NCBI GenBank assembly: GCA_951406725.2
Contig: OX597822.1
Location: 15,872,001-15,936,000 of the forward strand
Length of the DNA stretch: 64,000 bases
Source: Octopus vulgaris
Taxonomy: Eukaryota
Reading direction: 5' to 3'
Shown: positions 3,427 to 60,076 of the stretch, piece by piece
Numbering within the stretch: position 1 is the first letter of the stretch
Layout: the number at the start of each line of letters is the position of its first letter
Notes under the pieces: model-generated
The model's input: only the letters and a program-made list of their open reading frames with translations
What the model was told of the DNA's origin: nothing
Database searches by the model: none
Position numbers and translations under genes: made by a program

Positions 3427-3691
3427 TATATTTATGGAGATGATTTACGGGTATTTTATATTAGAAGAAATGAGGTACTCAGAAATTCGGATGGTTTTAT
3501 ATTTACAGATATTTATCATATAACTTAGATCATGTATTAGCGCTTTCTCCCATTCTAGTGGGGTTTTCGAATCAAACTAAGTTCCTGTGTGAAAAGGTTT
3601 GACCATTTTATAGTGGTATTGACTTTGTAGTGGTGGGGAGGAATATAAGACAGTACAAAAGGGTGATGGATGAGGAGAAAGTGAGAGAAAT

Positions 3692-3771
3692 TATGTGGTG
3701 GCGGGGAGGTAGACCACAAATTATGGTAAAAAGGAAATATAATTTGTGGTCTACCTCCCCGCCACCACATA
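3692..3771. repeat. Perfect 33-bp inverted repeat with 14-nt loop inside the palindrome spacer
   Basis: tatgtggtggcggggaggtagaccacaaattat ... ataatttgtggtctacctccccgccaccacata. Confidence 0.95.
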
Positions 3772-4065
3772 CTCAATAACACTATGAAATGGTCAAAACT
3801 GATCTTAGACCCCTCCTGGAGTAAACATGCTGTCTAGGAGAGCAAAAATATTTTTTTCAAATGTCTTCTTCCTCCCTCTCCCTTCCCCTTTTTTCTTTAG
3901 CACTCATTCCAAATACAAAAACACACACACACACACGCTCTCTCTCTCTCTCTCTCACTTTCTCCTCATCCATCACCCTCTTGTACTGTCTTATATTCAT
4001 CCCCACCACTACTAACTCAATACCACTATAAAATGGTCAAACCTTTTTACACAGGAACTTAGTTT

Positions 4066-4104
4066 GATTTGAAAACCCCACTAGAATGGGAGAAAGCGCT
4101 AATA
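4066..4104 (+). ncRNA. Variant minimal hammerhead-like motif (U3-A8 core); mirror copy at 3535-3573 (-)
   Basis: GAT TTGAAAA C CCCA-CTAGAA-TGGG A GAAA GCGC TA ATA; palindromic AGCGCT stem III. Confidence 0.5.
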
Positions 4105-4479
4105 CATGATCTACGTTATCTCTCTATATATGAAACTGAGAATGTGTGTCTGGCTGTCTGTCCCTAAAACTTGAGAACTACACAACCAATTTCATTCAAA
4201 TTTTACACATGCCTTACATAGGTTTCATGTAGTGTCTTGGGCCAAAAAATGTTTAACTTCTTTCCTAGAGCGAGCCCACAACAATATCATATCTTCTCCA
4301 CTATTTCGGTATTACGTGTTAAAAGTGAAACAAAAACATCTCTCTATTGTATGTATATGGATGTATATATATATTACAAAATATAAAGTTATATCTTGAG
4401 ATCGTTAGTGATAACAACGCTCAAAATATTTAACAGACTGGAATAGTAGTGCTCAAATGAGCTGTATACACATTTTAAT

Positions 4480-5170
4480 CCGAGGGAAGGCAATGCGAGC
4501 AGCAACTACAAGAGCACTGCAAAATCCACAGAAAGATCAAACACATACATATATTTATATATTCATTTATATCTACAGAACAGACATAAAGCCCGACGTT
4601 TAGAAATATATAGTAAAATATAAATATATAAACATCATATAAAGATATATTGTACGCATAAGATCCACTCGACGTTCCATAAAAAATTTAGAAATAAAAA
4701 TTGCAATAAAAGTTAGAGGTAATAATAACAATTGAATTAAATATGGTAAATATAGTAAGTAGTAATTAAATATATTTTATTTTATTAAAATGGTAATTAA
4801 ATCGTAATTAAAAGAAAAAATAGCAATTAGTATAAAATGTATCAAGGACTTGAACTCGAATATGTGGCTTTGCATGAATGAGAGAAATTAAAAGATTAAA
4901 AATTAAATTAAGTGCAGAAGTGAATTAGTCTGTGTGCATACCATTTACTATGGCTGCTAGATTGAATTATATGCTTATAAAGTAGCATTCAGTATCTAAG
5001 AGAATTTTGGGGAGTACGTAATGTCTGGTCTTTCGCATGTAGCAGGTATGTAATTGTGCATTTGTTTCCGTGTACTATGTGTTATGTGTTATTGTGCTTC
5101 TTATTTGAACCTGTGAGTTGCTGTTTAATTTTTGATTGTTAATTTTTATCGTTAAACGTTATTGTTACAC
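4480..5170 (+). mobile_element. Possible highly decayed PLE 3' coding end (region after the GIY-YIG domain), continuing at ~6727-6940
   Basis: ~4862-4940 translates WLCMNER...RSELVCVH, resembling the CxLCxxEK...RSELxSKCRH PLE C-terminus; a hammerhead lies downstream at 6748. Confidence 0.35.
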
Positions 5171-5243
5171 GGTTTTTTGGTTTTTTGTCTGTCTGTGTTG
5201 AGAAAGACAAGGAAGAAGTGGGCTGCCCCTCCCTAAGGGAGAG

Positions 5244-6564
5244 ATGGCCGGACGAAGTATGTTCGAATGTGTGCTGGATTTATCGACTTGTGAAGAAGAA
5301 CTTGAAAAGGCGATAAAGAAAATGGACAAGCAATTAGGCAACACATACGCAGGAGCGACAAGAACGGAGGAAAGAGAAATAGACTTGATCAAGTTGCCAA
5401 GCTACCAGGCATTTATTAAAAAGGTCGGCGGTGAAGTGGAGTTGTCACCGCCAGCAAAACAAAGAGAGTTGCATGAACGAAGGACCATTACGTACCGGAT
5501 TTATGCCAATGAAAAAAGAAAATAGAAGTCGTCAGTATGGAGACAATAGTAGAAGCATTAATAAGAACGGAAGAAGACATAATATTCTCGGCAAGAGGCA
5601 TAAATTTCGGTACCGTTGTGGTCCAATTCAAGAATGAAAGTGTGGCGAGTAAAATGGCAGCGAGAACGGTGAAGACAGAAAAGGTGTTCCTTCTTCCCAC
5701 ATATCTGGGTAGAAAAACTACTCGGATCAGGGTGGAGAGGATACTTCCTAATGTTGTCGGAGAGTGGATAGTGGCAGCCGTAATCAGTGGATGTGAGGAA
5801 GAAGTTGACATCCTCCATGCTACATTGAAAGATGAAGGCTGGAAGGGTGCAGTTTTGGAACTAAATGTGCAAGCAGAGGCTGAAATTTGGAACAATTGAC
5901 TGAGAATATCAGAATGGAATGTGTTATAATGAGAGTGTGGGTGGAGGGCAGAGCTCCACGCTGCTACAAGTGTGGCCTGAAAGGTCGCATAAGAGCTAAC
6001 TGTCCTCCCCCATCAAAGGAAATTGATGCGGAACCTCAATGAGAGGTAGTGGCCAACGAGGAAGAGTAGAAATCAACGGAGAAAGACGCAACGGAAGAGG
6101 AGGTGGTACAAAAAGAATGGGAAGAAGGCAGAAGAAGGAGGAAGAGAAGAAGAAAAAAAATAAATAGTGCTGAACCCCAATCCACCCCAACACCACCCGC
6201 ACCCTCTGACACCCACCCTTTCCCTGCAGACAGTGAACCCACCCGCTCCCCACCAACAAGAAAACAAAAAAATGAAGAAGCAAACAGACAAGATACCGCA
6301 AAAAGACCTGGGCCCAATTTTCTAGGTATTTCGACGAAAAAAGACGTAAAAGAAATATTGAAAGACTATCACTGGTGTGACAAGGACAGTGATAGGTACG
6401 CTGTAATCTCGGAAGAACGTATAGAAGAAATCGTGGAAAAATGTAAAAAGAAAAACTATAAATTGTTTAGATTTGAAATAGATGACGAGATAATTACGGA
6501 AATGGAAAAGAGATTTGCGATGAAAATAGAGCACAATGTGAATTACATTGAGGATAAAGCATGA
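5244..6564 (+). pseudogene. Frameshifted gag-like ORF1 of a non-LTR (Tx1/L1-like) element with zinc knuckle and no ORF2
   Basis: Consecutive ORFs 5244-5525, 5537-5899 and 6103-6564. VEGRAPRCYKCGLKGRIRANC (CCHC with H>R) at ~5941-6003, followed by basic and Pro-rich segments. 3' tail at 6681-6726. Confidence 0.75.
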
Positions 6565-6747
6565 AGGACAGGTAAGTGATGCTAGCAGATGGGGCCGTTA
6601 GCATCACTTTCATTTTTCATTTATCATTTTCATATTTTATTTTCCATACTTATGTAATTGTGATGTTTTATATCCCCAATGTTTGTAGTGTCCCCTCTGT
6701 GTAGCCCTTTATGGGTAATAAAGAAACGATATGTTTTGTGTAAAAAA

Positions 6748-6812
6748 CATCCTGACGAGGGGTGTGATATGTTTCATATTAATTGGTGCATCTCCGAAAC
6801 GGGCGGTAGATG
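6748..6812 (+). ncRNA. Type-I hammerhead ribozyme motif, canonical core
   Basis: CATC-CTGACGA-GGGGTG...CATCTCC-GAAA-C-GGGCG-GTA-GATG. Stem I CATC/GATG; predicted cleavage after A6808. Confidence 0.8.
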
Positions 6813-8399
6813 AACTTTTATGTATTTTTGTAAATTTGTATATTTATCTTCTATGTATTTTTCTCTGGAATTTTAATTCGTCTTTTTAATATGTCATTGT
6901 ATGTTTTATTATCCCAAATTTTTAATTTAACAAATTTATACCAAACTAGCACTATAACCCGGCAACGCTGGGTCATAATGCTAGTATGATGTATAAAAAC
7001 ATGTAATATACAAATAAATATCTGTATATATAAAACCATCCGAATTTCTGAGTACCTCATTTCTTCTAATATATATATATACATACAGGATGGCCCAAAA
7101 GCAGGTTTACAGTTATTCAGGACGAATGCTGCAGTGTTTTCTATTCGAAACTGTAATATTCCAGCTGAGTCGCAGTTGGAATGTTTTTTTTACATTTTTC
7201 TTTTTCCTTTTCTTTTCGCCATGGGACGGGTTACAGCTAATATCATCGTAACTGATTATTAAACGCACGCTGCAAATTATTTTGGTGGAACAAAGTTTGA
7301 CCAGTAATTTAGTTTGCTATTTTACATTTCTGAAGTTCTCAGCGAATTGCAGGAAGAAATTGTATGTTGTATAGGTGAATAATCCTATTTAGATGTTATT
7401 AGATATGTAATATATAGTTTTTAATTCGGAATTCATTACTCAATATGCTTTGAATTCCTATTTCTTGCATTAAGTATAGACGAAATTATTCCGAAGAACA
7501 TTAGCTACAAACCTGTAATTTTATTGAATTACTTCGAGGCAGACATAAAGAATCATTCCCAAAATCTAGGATCTAAAGAATGTTAATGAATATCAAACTC
7601 ATGCATCCTTCATTACCGTCAAAACTCCTTACGGCATTTTTTAACGTTTTTCGTTTTCCATGTTTCTATCTCAATGTTGTACGCTGTTTATGTGATTGTA
7701 TCTAAATATTTAGCTGACATATGCTAATTGCAATAGAACTATAGAATATAATAATGCTTCCTTTGGGCTCTTGCTCCACTGGATTCTTTAGTTAATACAA
7801 CAAAAGTATAAATAATGATGATAATAATAATAATAACAGTAGTAGTAGTAGTAGTAGTAGTAGCAGTTGTCTTGGTCTTCATCTCTTGAGGCCGAAAGTC
7901 ATTTGCAGTTTACAGTAGTAAATTGGAAAAGTCAGTATTTTGTAGCGGGAGATTATATGGAAGCTTGCACGATTTAGAAGCATTTGTTAATGGTCAGCTG
8001 CTGGGAATGTTCATTTTTATTGTAGTTCAAGATAACCGGAGTTCGTTTTCTTGCGTAACACGTTATTAGATAAATTATAGAGTTTGATTCCATCTATTGT
8101 TAAATAATTTCTCGCAAATCGATAATATTTGTATGCACTGTTGAAAGCATGTCTTTATTTCCATTTAGAAAACCTATACTTTATTGATTTAGATTTAAAA
8201 GCTTTTAGTAAGCTCATTCGGGATCTGCTAATATGATAAACATTAGGTTCTCCAGTGATTGACTTCGGCTTTAGCATTGAGTGCATAATGGTAATACGCA
8301 TTTAGCTGTCAAAAGAATTCGCTCGAACCTCATTAGACACATTAGGAAACTTAAGCGGAATATTATAATGAAGCTGGTCCAATGTCCGACTAAAAGTGT

Positions 8400-16211: not shown

Positions 16212-16218
<7 letters not shown>

Positions 16219-16577
16219 ATTTGTTAAGGAATAAAAATTCCGGCATAACGGCGGTTCAAATTATTCTCAATGAGGAAATATATATTTTCATTTAGAGATA
16301 GTAGGCCCCTTCACCCCACCATATAAAAGAATCTTAATTTAAATACTTACTACTTATAACTTGGCTACACGTGTTTCTTGAGGGACATTTCCCGGTTCCT
16401 TAACCACGTCTTGTTTTGCTGGAACCTTTCTTAAAATATAACACGGCGTAGTTAAGGAACCGGGAAATGTTCCTCAAGAAACACGTGTAGCCAAGTTATA
16501 AGTAGTAAGTATTTAAATTAAGATTCTCTTAAATGGTGGGATGAAGGGGCCTACTATCTCTAAATGAAAATATATAT
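16212..16577. mobile_element. Tail-out palindromic element between (TA)n runs (arms 16278-16410 / 16445-16577) with a hammerhead-like motif in each arm
   Basis: ~133-bp inverted arms; GGC GTAGTTA A GGAAC..GTTCC TCAA GAAA CACGTG TA GCC at 16445-16492. Confidence 0.8.
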
Positions 16578-17929: not shown

Positions 17930-17991
<62 letters not shown>

Positions 17992-17994
<3 letters not shown>

Positions 17995-18152
17995 GTTAAT
18001 CCAAATAAACGAAGAAAAATCACAGGAAAAAGAATAACGCGAGAACGTGGTAAATGTAAAGTATTAGCAAAAGCTCAGAGAAGGAAAGAAAAGTAGTTTT
18101 ACGTTTCTAGCAAAGCTCTTCATCAGAAACAGGAGACAGAGGTAAGTCCAAG
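17992..18152 (-). mobile_element. Short hammerhead-bearing element with 3' end in (TA)n
   Basis: Homologous to the 32751-32915, 33730-33846 and 54372-54530 copies. Confidence 0.8.
18096..18130 (-). ncRNA. Minimal type-I hammerhead motif
   Basis: GTTT CTGATGA A GAGC TTT GCTA GAAA C GTA AAAC (one stem II mismatch). Confidence 0.7.
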
Positions 18153-18198
18153 TCGCCAACGATCCGTATGCAGTTACATTTATATATGTGTGTGTGTG

Positions 18199-21357: not shown

Positions 21358-22950
21358 TTCCTTTATTGCCCACGGGGGGGGGAGCAAACATAGACGGCAC
21401 GATACAAATGAGGGAGGAGGTCGACAAAGCGAATGATTTTTAAAAATTTATATAAATCGGATGATAACAAACAATAGCACATACAATGAAGATCGGGACG
21501 GGTTTAGCTTCAACTCCGCAAGACCCGAGCCACCACTGTAAATTTTGTATACCCTTATAGAAATACTATGTGAGTTCGTTCATTCTCAGCAAACCCGCCA
21601 CAGCCTTCCGTATCTTTTTATATTTATCAGGTGACAGGTATTTTCTCTCCACCCTTATTTTCCTATCAAGGTGGTAAATGAGGAAATTAATCAATCTAAG
21701 GCGGAGATGAAGATGCCTGTCCCGATTCCGTTCACGCCGGTTTTCCATACCACTTCTTTCGCTATTGTGACCACAGCGAGAAAACAAGCCTTGCCTTCTT
21801 TGTTAAAAGAGGCAGGACGAACAATCATTACAATCGACTTGGAAAACAGCTGTACTCTTCCCAGCTGTGACAGCAGGTGTTCAACGTAAACCCATATTTC
21901 AGATATTTGGGGGCGTTGCAAATTCGTGTGCTGAACAGTTTCCTTGTCCTGCTCACATCTTGGGCACATAGATGAAAAAGGGTCACCATACCTTACAAGT
22001 TTATCGCGAACTACTAAAACTCCTCGGTAATACTGCCAGGCCAGATATCCTTTGAAATTATCCAAGGGTCCTAGCCTGAATGTCCTTCGTAACAGGTCGG
22101 CTAGATGACCATCATCGAAGCCTATAGCATCCACCAGGAAGTTTTCGCACTGAGCCTCTACCAACACTATAGAAAGCAGAGGTGGAACCCCGTAGCTGGC
22201 GTTGCCCGTGTGACAGAGAAGTTTGAGTACCTCACAACACTCCACTTGCCAAGCACCCAACTTTGGTCGACACTTGATCCAAGGTCCTAGTTCCCTCAAA
22301 CTAGTAAAGCTAGGAAGTAACGACCGAACGAACGGAGACCACTCCTGTTCACCATCCAGGTAGAGCCACAGATGCCTCAGCGCATGTCTGCGCATCAACA
22401 GCCAAGGCATCCCTAACCCACCCTTCAGCGGATGCTGGCAGTAGACAGAGCGCTATACAAGAGGACTCTAATCCCTCTATAAAAAGTGGAAGAGCAGCCG
22501 CTCCAACTTGATCAGCCACGAATGTGAGCAAGGCACGACGGTTAGGCGGTAGGTAATCACAGAAGCAATAAACACTCCTGCACTCTCCACCCATCCTTTC
22601 AGGGATAGCCGCCACTCAGACCAGGTCTGAGGGGATTCACCCTGCTCGTCACCTCGCTCCAATTCTTCTCTATCTGTAGGTCTGAAACAAACCAAACCCT
22701 TGGCATTTTAACCGGCCCTTCCGTCCAACGCCCTACGACGTTGTTGAGAGGTATCGCCTTGCCTCTCTAGGTGCAGTGTTGCAAGCCAACTGACTTATCT
22801 CGGTTAACTTTTGCTCCTGCCACCGCCTCGTAGCCATTAATGGCTTTGCCTACCCTCTGAAGGTTTACCATCTCGGATATGATGACAGTGATGTCATCCA
22901 CGTACGCCAAACATTCCTACTGCAACTTAGATGGCGTAGGACACCGTTCA
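21358..22950 (-). mobile_element. 5'-truncated Tx1/L1-clade LINE (ORF2 RT C-terminal half, zinc finger, 3' UTR)
   Basis: AYVDDITVII at ~22875-22907, YEAVAGAKVNRDKS, LSLKG, CPRC..ETVQH; 3' end GTGGGCAATAAAG; possible TSD tattcctt. Confidence 0.85.
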
Positions 22951-25730: not shown

Positions 25731-27032
25731 TCGCTTTATTAATAACCTGATATTCGTTGAGATGTTTAGCGTTATAAAATTACATTTAATAAATTACGTT
25801 TTCATAATGTAATAGGTACTGACGAAGAATACGTTTTTTTCTTTTTTTCGTAACTTCTATTATCTCCGCTATATGAAATTCATAACATCCTCTTATATTA
25901 TTATTTTATATCTTGACAAACTCAGCCGACTTCTAAATATATTTATTACTGTATCTATTGTTAAGTAGACAATACCTGATTACATACAAGAGCGCTGCTT
26001 CCCATTTCACATGTTTTATTTTCTCTACAGAAATGTAAACAGGATAATGTATTAATACAATAGAAAAGTAAACACGTAAACACATTCTGATGGATTTGAA
26101 TGCAACTATAAGCCACGCAGAATTGAGCTTAATAAACCAATTCGTTATTTTTCGTTTCTAATCTCTGAATTTCCGCAAACGAAAATATAAAAACATATAA
26201 TATAAAGAGTTAAGGCTGTACTCACAAATATATTGTCGAGGATCGTTGCAAGAGAAGGAATAAAAATTATTTCGAATTATTTCGTTCGTATATGATATGG
26301 TATAAATCTATGAATTGTTGTGTTTTAATGAAATTAACATTTAATTACATTCCATATACATCATATATTTTATGAACGCTATTATATAGCAAGTTTGTTG
26401 ATACGTTGCCAGCAAGCAAAATGGAAAGCTGTGCTACTGTGGATGACGTCTAATAAAGCAGAAAACATTCTCGGTTGTTTTGTTTTTTTTGCCCGCTCGT
26501 GTCAAGAATAATGGTAGCTTATCTCTAATATGACCACAATCAAGCATAATGTAATAATTTGTGATGCTAAAAACAAAGAAAATAATCGAAACGTGTAATT
26601 TATTGAGATACGTACACGAATCATATAGATGGAAACAGAATGAAAGGAAGAATTTAGTTAAAATGTGATTATTGAAAACTATAGGATTATTTTGCAGCAC
26701 AGTCTAATGGAGTTGATATGTTCTGCACATGATACCTTCCAATTAGGTATTCCAATTAAGCAGAATACTTTAGGGTATTTCTACTTCAACATAGATTATG
26801 ACAGTTCAAAGCATAATCTGACAATTTTATCACTTGTGACTGCAAGGAGCACACGTATTATATGAAAAATATATAGCATCGTTGACATGTGTAGAAAACA
26901 CAATTTCTACAGGCAGAACATCCGTTTCTCATATATGTAGATATATTTATTATTATACACATATTATTTCTCTTTCTCTCTATCTTTCTTTCTGTCTATC
27001 TATATACCCATGTATATGTTTATATATGTATG

Positions 27033-27098
<66 letters not shown>

Positions 27099-27106
<8 letters not shown>

Positions 27107-27302
27107 ATTGAGGTAATCAGATCAGATGGTTCATATTTGTAGATATTTATTTATATATTACATTTTTTACATATATATCATATCATTCGGATTAGCGCTT
27201 GCTCCCATTCTAGTGGGTTTTCAAATCAAATCAGTTGTGGGTAGTTTGAACCTTTTTATAGTTTCGTAGTAGTGGGTGAGGAGGAAGTGAGACAGAGAGA
27301 AA

Positions 27303-27384
<82 letters not shown>

Positions 27385-27801
27385 ATTTATATCTGAGAGT
27401 GAAGAAGTGTTATTTCCGTTGGTCTGCTGGACCCCCTGTGGTTTTATAAGAACTTTGGCTGTCCATTTCAATGTCACTGAGTGTGTGTTGTGCATAGGTT
27501 GGCCTGGCAAATGTCATTTGGGGTCACACTTTCTATGATCATTCTGTGGAGGTGTGTGTGTGTGTGTGTCTCACACACACACACACGCACACAAAAACAC
27601 ACACAGACACACAGAGACACACACACACACACACCTCCACAGAATGATCATAGAAAGTGTGACCCCAAATGACATTTGCCAGGCCAACCTATGCACAACA
27701 CACACTCAGTGACATTGAAATGGACAGCCAAAGTTCTTATAAAACCACAGGGGGTCCAGCAGACCAACGGAAATAACACTTCTTCACTCTCAGATATAAA
27801 T

Positions 27802-27875
<74 letters not shown>

Positions 27876-28120
27876 ACATATTTTCTCTCTGTCTCACTTC
27901 CTCCTCACCCACTACTACGAAACTATAAAAAGGTTCAAACTACCCACAACTGATTTGATTTGAAAACCCACTAGAATGGGAGCAAGCGCTAATCCGAATG
28001 ATATGATATATATGTAAAAAATGTAATATATAAATAAATATCTACAAATATGAACCATCTGATCTGATTACCTCAATTTTTCTAATATATAATACCTGTA
28101 CATCATCTCCAAACCTTCCG
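27099..28120. mobile_element. Near-perfect ~1-kb palindrome (arms ~27099-27572 / 27614-28086) between (TA)n runs; PLE-terminal-repeat-like
   Basis: Arms are essentially identical apart from the (GT)n tract. The right side carries ~30 extra nt homologous to 3432-3460. Variant hammerhead motif in each arm. Confidence 0.9.
27957..27994 (+). ncRNA. Variant hammerhead-like motif (U3-A8; GAAA>GCAA); mirror copy at 27190-27227 (-)
   Basis: GAT TTGAAAA CCCA-CTAGAA-TGGG A GCAA GCGC TA ATC. Confidence 0.45.
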
Positions 28121-28153
<33 letters not shown>

Positions 28154-28819
28154 TATAGAGGGGAAAGGAGCATATATACATAAACATTCAACATGCATAC
28201 ATAAACACACACACGCGCCGATACACATCCGAACCCAGGCACACACGCACACACGCGCACACACAAACACACACACACGCACGCACGTGCTCGCGCTTGT
28301 ACGGGGTAGACTGAATATTTTTCGATTTAGCCAAGTTGTGGACAATTGCCAATTGCGTGTGTTATTGCGGAGTTATAGAGTATGATATTGAATAGTTAAA
28401 TATCTTTATAGCAAAGCTGTAATTAGCAAGGAAAATTCAGTTTGGAATATACCCAAATGTATTTGAAATGTCTGTAACCTAAGGCAAACTGTAAGAAAAT
28501 CCTATGGCTTAATCTGTATCAATTCTGATATTTCATTGTACCTCTTTGTGGAAAGGACAACTAAATAAATATAATCAAATATGACTACACGTGTTTATCC
28601 GAATGTGAGCGTACCAGCCTGTAAGATGAGTTCATAAATTGGTCATACACACACACACTCACACACATACACGCACACGCACACAGGCACACATGTATGT
28701 ATGAGCATAATTGTTTATATGTGTATGTATGATTATATATGCATACATATTTAGAATTATACAAGTATCAAGCAAGCTATCTAACTATATATGAATATAT
28801 AAATATATATATATATTTA

Positions 28820-32750: not shown

Positions 32751-32915
32751 AGTAATTCCCCCCCCCAAAACGAAGAAAACAAGAACGCGTGGACATGATA
32801 CGTGTAAAGTATTAGCAGACTCTCAGGGAAGGAAAGAATGGTGGTTAAACGTTTCGAGCAAAGCTCATCTTCAGAAACACAGAAGACGGAGAAAGACAAT
32901 CGGCAACGATTCACA
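32751..32915 (-). mobile_element. Short hammerhead-bearing element in microsatellite DNA
   Basis: Homologous to 17992-18152. Confidence 0.8.
32844..32878 (-). ncRNA. Minimal type-I hammerhead motif
   Basis: GTTT CTGAAGA T GAGC TTT GCTC GAAA C GTT TAAC. Confidence 0.65.
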
Positions 32916-32919
32916 TGTG

Positions 32920-33729
<810 letters not shown>

Positions 33730-33733
<4 letters not shown>

Positions 33734-33846
33734 ATCCAAGCATGAAAACACAAAGAGAAAACACAATAACGCGAGGACGTGGATCAAATATAGTATTATA
33801 AGACGCTCAGGATGGAAGGGAAGAATGAGGGTTTAACGTTTCGAGC
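33730..33846 (-). mobile_element. Hammerhead element truncated inside stem II
   Basis: GCTC GAAA C GTT AAAC at 33831-33846 plus family tail running into (AACT)n/(TA)n. Confidence 0.7.
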
Positions 33847-34104
33847 ATATATCTTTATTTCCCTGAAAAGCTATTGCTTTACAAAAGGTTAAAGTAAAAA
33901 CTAATACCCAAGATTTTGCTTACTTCCACTAAACTTTGATTGTTTTATTGGAGAGGATGTATGTCAGCTCATTGTGTTATTCAAGTCACATCAGGTTGTA
34001 TCTTCAATTCAATTTTTCCAAGGGAGACAATAAATGCCATTACAATACATAACGGTTTGAATTGGCCTCAAATTCGAAACCTTGTATCCAGGTAGCATAA
34101 TTCC

Positions 34105-38457: not shown

Positions 38458-39132
38458 TATTATATATTGCCTTTGCACAGCTTCTAACGCTGGTGATGTA
38501 TTACAGTGTCAGCTGTTCACTACCAGTGAATTAAGGTAACACCTCTTATTTTTAGAGCACCTGCCGGAGTATTCGAGCGGTTCCAAGCAGTGCTGTTTTC
38601 TGCAAGTGCTCCACCCTTATTGCAACCCCTATTTGTTCCACATACTTCTCGAGATTTTTGCTCACTGTTCCCAGGGCTCGAGAATTACTACTACCTTTTT
38701 CATTGACCACAACTGCTTAACTTCCCAAGTTAAATTGTAATATCTCTCGACTTTTCTTTCTTCCTTATCACATAACTTGTTGTCAGTTGGACATGCTATA
38801 TATATGATCCAGCATAGTTTGTTTTCTTTCTCAATTAAGACTGTGTCTGGCTTCCTATTCTCTATCTCATGGTCGCACTGAATCATAAAATCCCATAGGA
38901 TCTTTGCATTTCTATTTTCGACGATGACTTCAGGTTCGTGGTCGTACAAATTTTTTGCTCTGTCAAGTCCATACTTGTTGCAAAGTATCCAATGGACAAG
39001 CCTGGCTAAATTGTCGTGACGTCTCTTATATTCCTTCTGGGCCAGTGACGTACATTGGCTGGTTATATGCTATACAGTTTCACCATTTTGTCCACAGATT
39101 CTGCACATATCACTTTCTGCTGTGTTGTCTAT

Positions 39133-42296: not shown

Positions 42297-42327
<31 letters not shown>

Positions 42328-42335
<8 letters not shown>

Positions 42336-42406
42336 ATTGAGGTAATCAGATCAGATGGTTCATATTTGTAGATATTTATTTATATATTACATTATATTAC
42401 ATATAT

Positions 42407-42410
<4 letters not shown>
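42328..42410 (-). mobile_element. Solo ~65-bp copy of the 27099 palindrome arm end within (TA)n
   Basis: ttagaaaaattgaggtaatcagatcagatggttcatatttgtagatatttatttatatattacat identical to 27099-27163. Confidence 0.9.
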
Positions 42411-42440
<30 letters not shown>

Positions 42441-46004: not shown

Positions 46005-46849
46005 GACGTAATATTCAGAATATTGCCATGGTAACGAAGCTAAAGCATGCAGACTATGGTCACTTTTCAAAGATTGACCTTGAACTCCGTTGTGTACCTT
46101 TCAATGACCTAGCTTCCTTCCACTTTTTACAGCAATGCTTGGAAAGAATCGGTGTAACGTGTGATCGTTGCATTGACCATGGCCGAGAAAGATTTCATGG
46201 CGATACTGCCTCAGAGGCCTATGCAAAGTTGCAGAAATTGTATGGATGGAATAGTCGGAGCCGCACGCATGTGTACGAGTGGTTTAGATGTTTCGAAGAT
46301 GGCCGAAAAATGTCGATACAACCAGTAGAATTGAGAAAAACATCACAGATGTGCGTGCAGCTGTGAAGAGGAATCGTCGAATCACCACCCTTGAGTTATC
46401 AGAGGATGTACAAATTAGTTACTGTTCAGTTCATTATCACTGAAGATTGGGGTACGGGACGCGTGTCTGCCAAGTTTGGGCCCAAAGTGCTTTCAGCTGT
46501 CCAGAAAGACACTCGGGTTTCAGTTGCACAAGATCTCTTTGCTTGTGTCGAGAACGATAAAAACTTTTTCAAAACTTTGTGTAGGCCTCTGAGTAGTTAG
46601 CACCAAGAGTTTGGCAAAATTTTATGCAGATTCTGTGCTCAACTTTCTCCTTCGTGTTCAATGCGACGATCACACTCTACATACCTTCCTTCTAAGCACT
46701 GCCGTAAATATGAAAACTGAGCCAGATCGTTAAAAATTTGTGCGCATGCATAACAAAGTTCAAAGTCAATCTGTGCAAACTGGCTTTACTCTGAATACAT
46801 TACATTCGTTACTATGACAACAGTCTGGATACTTATTGACCAGACCACG
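46005..46849 (+). mobile_element. Non-autonomous mariner derivative with long inverted arms, copy 1
   Basis: VYEWFRCF, RVSAKFGPK, no catalytic domain; collinear with 52863-53722. Confidence 0.85.
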
Positions 46850-46904: not shown

Positions 46905-47945
46905 GGTCTTATTTTTACGCCGTGCTCTCACTGTGTGTGACTTGAGTATGCGCTGTGGTTTGTTGTGGCGCTCTTATTTTTACTGTACTGAAAGTGCTTT
47001 ACGTAAGATATGCGAGGCGCCTAGAAGTGTTACTTTCTATATGATATACATTCGTAAGTCCTGGTGTTTTGGTTATGAGTTTGTCTGAATGTCTTTTTAA
47101 TCATACCTAATGCCCCTATTATTGCAGGGACTATTTCTGTTTCTAGGCTCCGTATTCGAATCCCCCCTATTTCCACATCTTTGCTTGTTGATAGTTTTTC
47201 GGTTTCTTTTAGAGATACATTGTCATCAGTTGGTATTGATACATTGATTATCAGGCATTCTTTTTCTTGGTGATCTCTGATAACTATATCTAGTCTATCA
47301 ACTTTGGTTTCCCTATCTGTGTGCATTGGCACATCCCAGAGTATGATTGCTTTTTCATTTTCTGAGACCTTTTCAAGGGTGTGTTTATATCTATTGTTTT
47401 TGTCATTTCATAGTGGTTGAATAACTCCCAGTGTACATAGGTCCCAACTCTGTCATATCTGTGGATATATTCCTTTCGCCATGATTGATCGCTAGCCACT
47501 AAACCTTTTCTATTTTCTGTCCCTGTTGATTTCTCTGTTCCTTTCTGTCAAAGAGCGTAGGCTCAAAACAAAAAAGACCTTCTCACTTCCCGAGCGTTAA
47601 ACTAATGCATCTGTTTGTTGTTTACAGGCCCGTCTTCGTCTTTTGTTTTGTTTTCCATTTTGTTAATTCTCACGATATATTCCTTCTTAGCCAGGACTGG
47701 GCAGCCAGAAACAACATGATTTAATTTTTCTTCCTCATCACCACATATGTTGCAGTTACTTGTATTGTTTTTCATTGTGCGTTTTTCCTGATGGGAAAGC
47801 TTTGATCATGTGCTGCAATTAAAAGTCCTTTCAGTCTCAGCTTTGAGTCCTGAGCTTTTCAGCCATTGTTGGGATTTTACCTTGTCTATTTCTCTTTCTG
47901 TTTAGCTTAGCCTAACATTTGCTATGTAAGGGCCTTTTCATGCCA
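46905..47945 (-). mobile_element. R4/Dong-like LINE 3' fragment interrupted at 47476-47673
   Basis: WLKSSGLKAETE, CPVLAKKEYIHRYD, WDVPMHTDRETKVDRLDIVI, IIGALG. Confidence 0.85.
47476..47673 (+). mobile_element. Hammerhead-element copy with 12-bp TSD GATATATTCCTT
   Basis: TSD at 47464-47475 and 47674-47685; degenerate motif CTTT CTGTCAA A GAGC GTAG GCTC AAAA at 47541-47576. Confidence 0.8.
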
Positions 47946-50432: not shown

Positions 50433-50882
50433 TGTAAGAATAAAAATAAAAATACAATTAAAAGTTTAATTTATTCATTGCCATACTGATCAGGAAAGAA
50501 TCTTTTGAAGGAGATCAAAGAAGTTTAATAAGATGAAGTAAAATGAGATAAAAAATGAACAGAGATGGGGCAATAAGGGGAATCTGTTAATTTACAAACC
50601 AAGTTGTGAACGGAAAAATAATAATATCAACAATAATAATGGTGAGTGAAACGAAAAATAAAAATATATGAATGTGTATGCAAGTATATATGTACAATGA
50701 AACTATACCATAAGAATCCAACGGATGTGTTTAAAATAATAATAATAATAAACATCACTCTAGACGAAATACAGTGTAAACAAGGCCACTTGTGTCTATT
50801 AGAGTACGATGTAACAATTTCACTAGCATAAGAAAGCCATAGAGGGTTATACGTATACATAATTTTATTATTGTAAAACGAG

Positions 50883-51392: not shown

Positions 51393-51529
51393 ATATATCT
51401 TTATATACTTCATCTTATTAAACTTTTTTGATGTCCCTCAAAAGATTCTTCACTGATGAGAATGATAATACATTAATTAAATTTTTAATTTTACTTTTAT
51501 TTTTATTGTAATTTTTTCATTGTTTATTT

Positions 51530-52808: not shown

Positions 52809-52862
52809 GTGTGTGTGTGTACGCATGTATTCCTAAATATGTTCATATTATAAATGTATATA

Positions 52863-53722
52863 CGAGATCTGATCGATAAGTATCCGGACTGTTGCCATAG
52901 TAACAAAGCTGAAGCACGCAGAGTAAAGACGCTTGGCACAAGTTGACCTTCACCTCTGCTGTGCATGTACACTAAGTTCTAACGTCCTACCTCACTTCCC
53001 CTGTTTACAGCATTGATTGGACGCAACGTGTGTGACGTGTGTTTGTCGCACTGACCATGACAGAAAACGTTGTCATGGCGATACCTGCTCAGAGGCCTAC
53101 GCAAAGTTGCAGAAAGTGTATGAAGTGGTGTGTATAAGTTCCAACAGAATTACATGAATGGTTCAGACGTTTCCCAGATGGCCGAAAAAATGTCAGTAGT
53201 GAGGAATGTTCTTGGAGACCTGCGACCAGCAGAACTGAGAAAAATATCGCTGATGTGCGTGTAACTGTGAAAGGCAATCGTCGAATCACTACCCGTGAGT
53301 TATCAGAGGATGTGCAGATTAGTTAAGGTTCAGTTCACTCCATTATCTTTAATGATTTGGGCATGAGACGCGTGTCTGCCAAGTTTGTGCCAAAACTACA
53401 TTCAGCTGACCAAAGAGACACTCGGATTTCAGTTGCACAAGATCCTGATTGTGTCGAGAACGATGGAAACTTTTTGACAACTTTTCATAGGCCTCTGAGC
53501 AGGAATCGTCAAGCTTTTGGCAAACTTTGATGCAGATTCTCTACTCAGCTTTCTCCTTCATGGCCAAGGCGACGATCACATGCTACACATGTTAATTCCA
53601 AGCACTGCTGTAAACAACAAAAGTTAGCTGGAACGTTAAAACTTTGTGCAAATGCACAGCAGAGTTCATGCTTTAGTTTCGTTACTATGGCAACAGTCCG
53701 GATACCTATTGATCAGACCACG
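52863..53722 (+). mobile_element. Non-autonomous mariner derivative with ~250-bp inverted arms and TA TSD, copy 2
   Basis: TA|cgagatctgatcgataagtatccggactgttgccatagtaac ... gttactatggcaacagtccggatacctattgatcagaccacg|TA; HTH and RVSAKFVPK only. Confidence 0.9.
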
Positions 53723-53904
53723 TACATATCAATTCACCCATCCCTAAAAGCACAGAAAAATATATCTAGCTAGCTTCACTTTTGAACTATTTTACATCTT
53801 TTCAACAGACACTCATTATATCAATATGCAGGCGTGTGTGTATGTGTGCATTTGTATCCGTATGCGTTATGTTCGTATGCTTTTGTGTTCGTATCCGAGC
53901 ATTC

Positions 53905-54371: not shown

Positions 54372-54529
54372 TGTGGACATTCCCCTGTCTCCAGTTTCTG
54401 AAGAAGAGCTTTACTCGAAACGTAAAACACCCTTTCTTTCCTTCCCTGTGCGTCTTATTAATACTTTGAAAGCTCCCCGTACTCGCGTTGAAGGATTTTT
54501 ATGTCTTTTTTCTCCGTCTTTTTTATTAC

Positions 54530-54530
<1 letters not shown>
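54372..54530 (+). mobile_element. Short hammerhead-bearing element ending in (TA)n
   Basis: Homologous to the reverse complement of 17992-18152. Confidence 0.8.
54394..54428 (+). ncRNA. Minimal type-I hammerhead motif with intact core
   Basis: GTTT CTGAAGA A GAG CTTTA CTC GAAA C GTA AAAC; predicted cleavage after A54424. Confidence 0.75.
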
Positions 54531-54586
<56 letters not shown>

Positions 54587-54587
54587 T

Positions 54588-54750
54588 GTGTGTGTTGCTG
54601 TGTGGTAAGAAGATTGTTTCTCAAGCAAGCACATGAACTCAGGTTCAGTCCCATTGCGTGGCACTTTGGGAAAGTCTTCTGCCATAGTTTCGGGCCGACG
54701 AAAGCCATTTCTGTGGATTTGATAGATAGAAACTGAAAGAAACCCATAGT
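54588..54750 (+). mobile_element. SINE family A 5' half
   Basis: gctgtgtggtaag..ggttcagtcccattgcgtggcac..gaaactgaaagaaaccc. Confidence 0.8.
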
Positions 54751-59427: not shown

Positions 59428-60076
59428 TTGTCAATAAGTATACAACAGAAGAAACGCACGGCTAATGATGACGGCAGCGACTGCTGTGGGATTCCGTAGA
59501 GGCTCCCTTCTTGTGTCGCATTACGTTTTCTGACGGCCATGATTATTGCCCGTCGCGCTTTATGCATTGACAATCTTTCGTCTGAGGTCATTTTTATGGA
59601 ATGGAAGTAAGATATGTCTTCATATAATTGACCGTGCCCCATAGCATATGGGACAAGGCCAATGGTATTAGATGTAATAGTATTAAATATATATTAATGC
59701 ACATAAACTTATTTAAACTAATGATTATTCTTGCATGGATAACTACAACAGTAGTTCTTCATGTTGTTCAACATGAAACCGAGCTTCAGTTATTTCCATA
59801 TTTTCATGGATCGTTCTATTCAGCAGTCGCTGCCGTCATCATTAGCAGTGCGTTTCTTCTGTGGTATACTTATTGACAATGTCGTCCCTCGTTAGCTTTC
59901 ATTGAATACACAATGATAAAATACTTTCTAATCGTAATTATTCCATTGTTGACCTACTATCTAAGTAATTATCCTTTTCAAGTCCGTTTTAGTGATTATT
60001 TGAGGAGGATTTGACTGCAATCTCCAAAAGTATGTGAGATTCCGTAGAGGCTCCCTTCTTGTGTCGCATTACGTTT
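59428..60076. repeat. Local mosaic duplication: 59428-59486 inverted at 59821-59879; 59485-59528 direct at 60033-60076
   Basis: 59-bp inverted match (2 mismatches) abutting a 44-bp direct match (1 mismatch). Confidence 0.9.

Follow-up and report, generated by a model that had tools for sequence, protein, structure and literature searches.

A likely young Penelope-type palindromic insertion in (TA)n DNA of Octopus vulgaris

Introduction

Penelope-like elements (PLEs) are abundant in Octopus vulgaris, where 190 families account for 6.83% of the genome (PMC13282606). As described in the sections of a broad survey consulted here (PMC8557442), PLE insertions characteristically have an inverted, 5'-truncated copy, a tail of 30-40 bp that often lies at one end only, and (TA)n targets, the latter including those of Octopus Naiad and Hydra families; non-autonomous members also exist. 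Most PLE clades carry a hammerhead, Naiads being without canonical ones. The same sections state that the tail and the tandem or inverted pLTRs are not seen in non-LTR TPRT, and name the formation of PLE inverted repeats and tails as an open task.

Two further studies bear directly on how such structures might arise. The part of PMC3846280 consulted describes inverted pLTRs of which one has a 31-bp tail, as well as head-to-head palindromes, and proposes a self-priming model. The anole PLE protein, a predicted dimer, has been purified and both cleaves and extends the two strands of AT-rich DNA, starting in vitro at two sites that bound the tail, both of which are true start sites. The initiation site is not homologous to the target, the two strands behave alike, and parts 1-2 of that paper show no inverted products (PMC11167929).

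Here we analyse a 64-kb stretch of Octopus vulgaris DNA (the window), in which an earlier note, made from the sequence alone, had pointed to four inverted duplications of similar layout. The window is AT-rich, with 27-43% GC per 2 kb, and contains many microsatellites and decayed transposon pieces. We focus on the palindrome near position 27 kb, which likely represents a real, young insertion of the PLE type.

Results

Two nearly identical arms, one of them with a tail

The near-perfect 1-kb palindrome that had been reported at 27099-28120 is borne out. It consists of a left arm on the minus strand (27099-27572, 474 nt) and a right arm on the plus strand (27614-28085, 472 nt), arranged head-to-head within a (TA)n microsatellite and separated by an unpaired, CA-rich loop of 41 nt (27573-27613). 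Outside a long (GT)/(CA) run, which appears in the right arm as an internal (CA)n run at ~27805-27878, the arms pair at 410/410 positions, in blocks of 191/191 (27382-27572 with 27614-27804) and 219/219 (27093-27311 with 27873-28091). The only differences, one substitution and one indel of 2 nt (a single repeat unit), both fall within the run, and the flanks are not mirrored. As RNA, the element is computed to fold into one hairpin of -910.6 kcal/mol, a value that means only that pairing is possible.

The two arms end differently. On the plus strand, the right arm continues into an internal TATATA tract (28086-28091) and a 29-nt tail (28092-28120; 35 nt if counted from CTAA|), which adjoins a (TA)11 target tract (28121-28142). 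The left arm, presumably the second, inverted copy, has no tail: it ends at CTAA|TATA and passes from its own TATATA directly into a 61-nt TA tract (27038-27098), with which it merges. Tail-less ends stop at this TATATA tract, which is microhomologous to the (TA)n target. The loop forms no hairpin of its own, and runs in the plus-strand orientation of the tail-bearing arm, with 21/22 nt matching the sense strand of the family. Six-frame translation of the arms yielded no conserved ORF, and the arms are non-coding; neither an RT nor a GIY-YIG ORF was found in or beside them among the ORFs of the window and the arm translations.

Relatives with common breakpoints

A 26-nt end motif of this family has five matches in the window, compared with 0 in 100 shuffles. 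In the alignment of these five ends, outer ends fall at fixed points while inner ends vary. Three of the five (27099, 7073 and 42322) stop at CTAA|TATA, a breakpoint that the earlier note had seen in the 27-kb and 3.4-kb elements and that also ends a solo copy at 42 kb. A homologous tail is found at the other two (28092-28120 and 3432-3456).

The 3.4-kb element, ~72% alike to the 27-kb element overall and 70-82% in the arms, is an older palindrome. Its earlier extent of 3432-7072 does contain a palindrome, but one of only ~0.75 kb, the right arm of which is split by a 2.87-kb insert (4119-6984). The minus-strand left part (3432-3724) comprises the tail (3432-3456; 25 nt, or 25-31 nt by counting) and the left arm, and the plus-strand right arm (3739-7073, in two parts, 3739-4118 and 6985-7073) is tail-less and ends at CTAA|TATA. 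The arms have diverged, with 162/169 and 59/60 positions paired, and ~180 nt of the right arm (3772-3950), together with another 20 nt, have no counterpart in the left, tail-bearing arm. A direct repeat of 45 nt (84%; 3756-3800 and 4000-4044) is also present; the segment found only in the right arm includes this repeat of a downstream part, and may have been inserted there, copied from a second template or lost from the left arm.

The solo copy (42322-42413, minus strand, ~92 nt) lies between TA tracts and has neither a partner arm nor a tail; its outer 70 nt (42322-42391) are identical to the 27-kb arm.

The insert within the 3.4-kb element, which we take to be Helitron-like, begins with TC, ends with CTAG after a 7-bp hairpin (6957-6973), and lies between an A and a T. 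It contains a broken ORF (~5200-6564) with a zinc-knuckle-like CxxC stretch, followed by a hammerhead at 6748-6812. A search with one piece of this ORF returned no sequence relatives and no Pfam match; by language-model features the same piece resembles RRM/pre-C2HC gag-like clusters (0.87-0.92), a lead only. A gag-like ORF with a hammerhead has been described for Chlamys-2_cBra (PMC8557442).

The same layout in unrelated palindromes

An inverted-alignment scan recovered all four inverted duplications at the positions reported earlier. Those at 16 kb and 33 kb have no sequence in common with the 27-kb family or with each other, and yet are laid out alike. At 16212-16577, a tail (16212-16277) is followed by arms at 16278-16415 and 16440-16577, paired at 131/138 positions and imperfect next to the loop. 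At 33412-33667, a left tail of ~81-85 nt precedes arms at 33497-33573 and 33591-33667, which pair at 77/77 positions around a 17-nt loop. As had been claimed, extra sequence is present on one arm only in 4/4 elements: 29 nt in the 27-kb, 25 in the 3.4-kb, 66 in the 16-kb and ~81 in the 33-kb element. Loops are also short throughout (41, 14, 24-46 and 17 nt in the same order), which is partly a selection effect of searching for palindromes.

All four elements had been described as lying between TA runs. This holds for the tail-less ends, each of which is <=1 nt from a TA run (4/4), against a background of 1.6% of window positions within 8 nt outside such a run. It does not hold for the left end of the 3.4-kb element, which adjoins no TA run, only a 7-nt TATATAT. 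Among the 13 inverted alignments listed within 4 kb of each other, 8 are the four elements or sub-parts of them, and the other 5 adjoin no TA run.

The window contains several other repeats and inverted structures. A short repeat is present at 17932-18187, 32766-32934, 33663-33858 and 54374-54593, each copy bearing a hammerhead-like core, which two of them have intact, and running out into (TA)n at the 3' side; the 33-kb palindrome sits in a TA tract between two of these copies. An older inverted pair (50439-50540 and 51406-51507, 85%) is separated by a long spacer, with a CUGANGA half-core on its right arm, and may be a variant of the four palindromes in which the spacer is long. Farther along, at 59428-59879 and 60033-60076, an inverted pair of 59 nt (97%) adjoins a 44-nt direct repeat away from TA runs, and a near-perfect hairpin of 56 nt (1716-1771) lies inside a decayed repeat. 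Two decayed mariner-type copies (46012-46849 and 52857-53728; Mos1 HTH, E 4.6e-05), one with inverted ends, and fragments of non-LTR retrotransposon ORFs (21691-22452, with zf-RVT, 38662-39069 and 47030-47407) are also present; the 38.7-kb fragment has 111 relatives, many of them with RT domains.

Arms and tails without an intact hammerhead

Hammerhead-like motifs had been placed in three of the elements, and their orientation used to argue that the element 3' ends point outward. A pattern scan of the four elements detected no arm or tail with an intact hammerhead core. When the arrangement in arms and tails was scored against 60 shuffles, the best matches had <=4/6 CUGANGA-box bases in hammerhead arrangement, with scores matched by 21-53/60 shuffles, and the proposed motifs are not confirmed by this comparison. 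A minus-strand stretch at 3840-3905, directed inward within the right arm of the 3.4-kb element, reached 5/6, matched by 1/60 shuffles; it is purine-rich and its core is broken. The score itself is weak, as 4/6 control regions were likewise not separated from shuffles. Rfam gave 0 matches at the gathering score; at E up to 10, the 150 matches listed of 202 were of hairpin or microsatellite character, mostly to miRNA models, with no hammerhead among these. One complete minimal type I hammerhead does occur within the four elements, at 6748-6812, where it belongs to the nested insert of the 3.4-kb copy, and the other intact cores in the window (32874, 54398 and 50956) belong to separate repeats. 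By eye only, the 16-kb tail bears a faint resemblance to a hammerhead.

The motif could sit in the part of the element lost by truncation. Hammerheads thus lend the orientation no support, but the orientation itself is likely correct, since fixed outer ends combined with variable inner ones show the polarity expected of truncation.

A young, high-copy repeat

Part of the interval 26000-28700 is contained in 20 of 24 listed public runs, with no RNA run listed among those containing it; run X1 may be the one from which the window comes. Contigs of 4 runs were aligned to 27879-28560 only, giving 122-529 records each. Contigs matching the arm exactly had depths of 2862 and 1910 in run X2, where the flank had 13.4, and of 3428 and 3682 in run X5, against 42.6 for the flank; the resulting arm/flank ratio of 80-210 is rough. 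Loose contig ends of X14 include the tail-less junction into TA at 28091, a sister variant of which appears in X5, and pieces resembling the 3.4-kb subfamily were also found among loose ends. The high depth of the arm contigs, together with the loose ends, therefore identifies the arm as a repeat that is young and of high copy number in two or more of the coded organisms.

Over 27879-28560, the contigs of the 4 runs included none that bridges the tail-flank junction (depth is absent at 28132-28292, repeats being skipped) and no joint or empty site, none of which proves anything either way. In X14, the run tentatively taken for RNA, contigs had no A>G or T>C places; as rare variants are lost from contigs and the run might be DNA, nothing follows from this about editing or expression. 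Scanning metagenome contigs and prokaryote genome contigs by pattern returned 0 loci.

Discussion

Comparison with Penelope-like and other elements

Several hallmarks of PLE insertions are present here. All four elements (4/4) are head-to-head structures with an inverted, 5'-truncated copy, if polarity is read from the fixed outer and variable inner ends. A one-end tail is 29-35 and 25-31 nt long in the 27-kb and 3.4-kb members of one family, close to the 30-40 bp described, and 66 and ~81 nt in the other two families. The bias towards AT-rich or (TA)n DNA is evident from the tail-less ends (4/4 at a TA run, against 1.6%) and from the solo copy between TA tracts. The 27-kb element has no direct pLTRs, the nearest approach being the 84% repeat of 45 nt in the 3.4-kb element. 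The type I hammerhead of the Penelope/Poseidon, Neptune and Hydra clades and of non-LTR retrozymes was not found in arms or tails, and no full-length family member with an RT and GIY-YIG ORF could be linked to them, the metagenome and prokaryote contig scans giving 0 outside loci.

In a consensus file for Naiad, Chlamys and Hydra elements (supplement of PMC8557442, 584,000 characters), 13/16 short motifs had no match, with the proviso that line breaks in the file can hide matches. The remaining 3/16 each had a single 10-mer match, which we take to be chance; one of these lies in an apparent Naiad_Omin sequence. The 27-kb family is thus unmatched, at the level of short motifs, in the one consensus set searched. 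Three family motifs are absent from the supplement of PMC13282606, which contains no sequence library.

The closest described insertions are those of EN+ PLEs of the Penelope/Poseidon type, such as Pen2a_Av of Adineta vaga (PMC3846280) and PAc of Anolis (PMC11167929), which, as far as the consulted parts of these papers go, resemble the present elements in the head-to-head inverted copy, the ~30-nt tail on one arm, the AT-rich target and the two alternative outer ends. The palindromes described here differ in having no ORF or body between the repeats and no hammerhead in the arms. They also differ from PAc in that their tail-less ends lie at TA microhomology, whereas PAc initiation in vitro is non-homologous (PMC11167929). 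The Naiad and Hydra clades share the (TA)n preference, the lack of a discernible TSD, the inverted copies and the one-sided tails, and Naiads also the want of a canonical hammerhead (PMC8557442). However, cephalopod Naiads are described in that survey as long inactive, whereas the 27-kb family is young and its short motifs match neither clade convincingly in the consensus file, and Hydra elements have hammerheads, unlike the arms here.

MITEs and the palindromic Harbinger repeats of Xenopus are likewise self-folding, near-perfect hairpins of a few hundred bp and potential ADAR substrates (PMC5625713, as far as consulted), but the ends here are asymmetric, the inner ends vary, solo ends exist and no fixed TSD is seen, although a TA duplication would be indistinguishable inside (TA)n, which limits how TSDs can be read. 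We considered a MITE or other TIR DNA transposon and rejected it, as the required symmetry fails in 4/4 elements, in which one arm is 25-81 nt longer. The earlier reading of a TA-targeted insertion of the retroelement type, rather than a MITE, is thus upheld by the one-sided tail and the fixed outer and variable inner ends. The other familiar case is L1 twin priming, in which another portion of the one RNA is inverted without being duplicated. It resembles the present case in having an inverted segment and a second end at internal microhomology; here the same segment is duplicated, and neither a poly(A) tail nor a TSD is seen.

Taken together, the 27-kb palindrome likely works like a PLE insertion, and its family is a candidate for PLE membership. 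That a PLE-type process of one kind or another made the insertion is, in our judgement, probable.

How the palindrome may have formed

We tentatively favour, at slightly less than even odds, a young insertion by a PLE enzyme in which the second arm was made by fold-back of the first cDNA. A GIY-YIG endonuclease would nick the (TA)n target, and RT would prime at the outer tail end and copy ~540 nt of RNA, covering tail, right arm and loop. The 3' end of this cDNA would then fold back and copy itself into an inverted arm, until, at the internal TATATA, the new strand could anneal to the opposite (TA)n end of the target, after which host repair would fill in. The second arm would lack a tail because the new strand would have been captured at the internal TATATA. 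The anatomy, the common breakpoints and the high copy number are observed directly, and each enzymatic step is proposed to account for them. With one template, such a route could explain the duplicated segment, the tail on one arm, the end at TA microhomology and the short loops, and the need for two templates or tandem terminal repeats, asserted earlier, falls away. Pairing of the arms at 410/410 positions, exactly one tailed arm in 4/4 elements, and loops of 14-46 nt are consistent with fold-back, as is the imperfect stem beside the loop of the 16-kb copy, which a priming hairpin would leave. The 27-kb loop, the only one of the four whose orientation can be read, is oriented with the tail-bearing arm, again as fold-back would have it. 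Pointing the other way are the solo tail-less copy at 42 kb, which has no partner, the missing ~180 and 20 nt of the tailed 3.4-kb arm, which would call for two later deletions, the absence of a hairpin from the 27-kb loop, and the finding that both tail boundaries are true start sites in vitro (PMC11167929). Among the mostly open-access literature that we could match to PLE twin priming, self-priming, fold-back or palindromes, the self-priming of PMC3846280 is the only such proposal.

The same product could instead come from twin priming of the PLE type, in which both nicked strands prime RT, with the tail end as the site for one strand and the internal UA tract as that for the other, from two RNAs or two pLTR copies of one RNA, the cDNAs being joined head-to-head by microhomology. 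Twin priming had been put forward in the earlier note; it is plausible as a route, even though two templates are not required to explain the product, and we regard it as a possible, if less probable, origin. The ability of the predicted dimeric anole protein to cleave and extend both strands, with two start sites bounding the tail (PMC11167929), speaks for it, and all tail-less ends lie at TA microhomology. Twin priming also fits two observations better than fold-back does: the solo copy at 42322-42413, which suggests that initiation at the inner site can be enough for an insertion, and the 3.4-kb arms, whose two large indels could reflect separate templates. Fold-back, on the other hand, fits the short loops slightly better, since independent truncation should leave long, unequal inner ends and the loops are all 14-46 nt. 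The in vitro start is, moreover, non-homologous to the target and alike on both strands, and inverted products do not feature in parts 1-2 of PMC11167929. In the same literature, as listed, no twin-priming model for PLE palindromes is stated.

Doubts about a PLE origin itself come from the arms having no linked ORF, no intact hammerhead core and no convincing short-motif match in the consensus file, and from tails of 66 and ~81 nt, above the typical 30-40 nt. It is conceivable that a non-PLE element was at work, either a LINE or SINE 3' end with an inversion, or a MITE or foldback transposon in which a later deletion, running from the internal TATATA to the flanking (TA)n, removed ~30 bp from one terminal repeat; the window does hold many other TA-associated repeats. 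We consider this unlikely: one-sided loss would be needed in 4/4 elements, two of them with undiverged arms (410/410 and 77/77), inner ends are variable and one end occurs solo, L1-type inversion does not duplicate, and the tail with tandem or inverted pLTRs is reported as foreign to non-LTR TPRT (PMC8557442). Still less probable is that a single arm inserted first and became a palindrome later, through fold-back during replication or repair at its microsatellite, or that arm-to-arm conversion keeps the arms identical. The turn does lie in a (GT)/(CA) tract, and the solo 42-kb copy shows that single arms exist, but fold-back by the host would not be expected to stop at one and the same element-internal site in copies ~72% alike, nor to leave the flanks untouched. 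The arms of the older palindromes have diverged (162/169 and 131/138) and are therefore not being kept identical by conversion. Finally, an artefact of assembly or of fold-back reads might be suspected, as the arms are identical outside the microsatellite and no contig of the 4 runs crosses the tail-flank junction within 27879-28560. Yet the mirror stops at an element-internal site common to two other loci and leaves the flanks unmirrored, the same layout recurs with diverged arms, one of them interrupted by a later insertion, and tail-less TA junctions are found in contigs of X14 and X5; we therefore rate an artefact as very improbable.

Implications for octopus double-stranded RNA

Published work already covers the layout, the tail and the consequence for dsRNA, and the locus is ordinary transposon debris. 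What retains interest is that tail-less ends repeatedly fall at TA microhomology, across three unrelated families, together with the opportunity offered by young, body-less, high-copy palindromes for a computational test of fold-back against twin priming, based on tail side versus loop orientation and on private mutations common to both arms.

If transcribed, the 27-kb palindrome would form long dsRNA. In the parts of PMC5625713 consulted, octopus has an exceptionally high share of near-perfect-dsRNA loci and ranks among the top two for hyper-editing signal, and lizard Penelope undergoes heavy editing; in Drosophila, siRNAs match inverted regions of Penelope copies (PMC3681739, in part). Palindromes like those described here are a candidate source of the near-perfect dsRNA of octopus. 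A more far-reaching possibility, which we consider doubtful, is that several body-less families of the PLE type routinely insert as short perfect palindromes with the second end at TA microhomology; at the density seen here, four in 64 kb, they might then be the main source of the near-perfect dsRNA and hyper-editing of octopus, and their young copies the natural data set that could decide between fold-back and twin priming.
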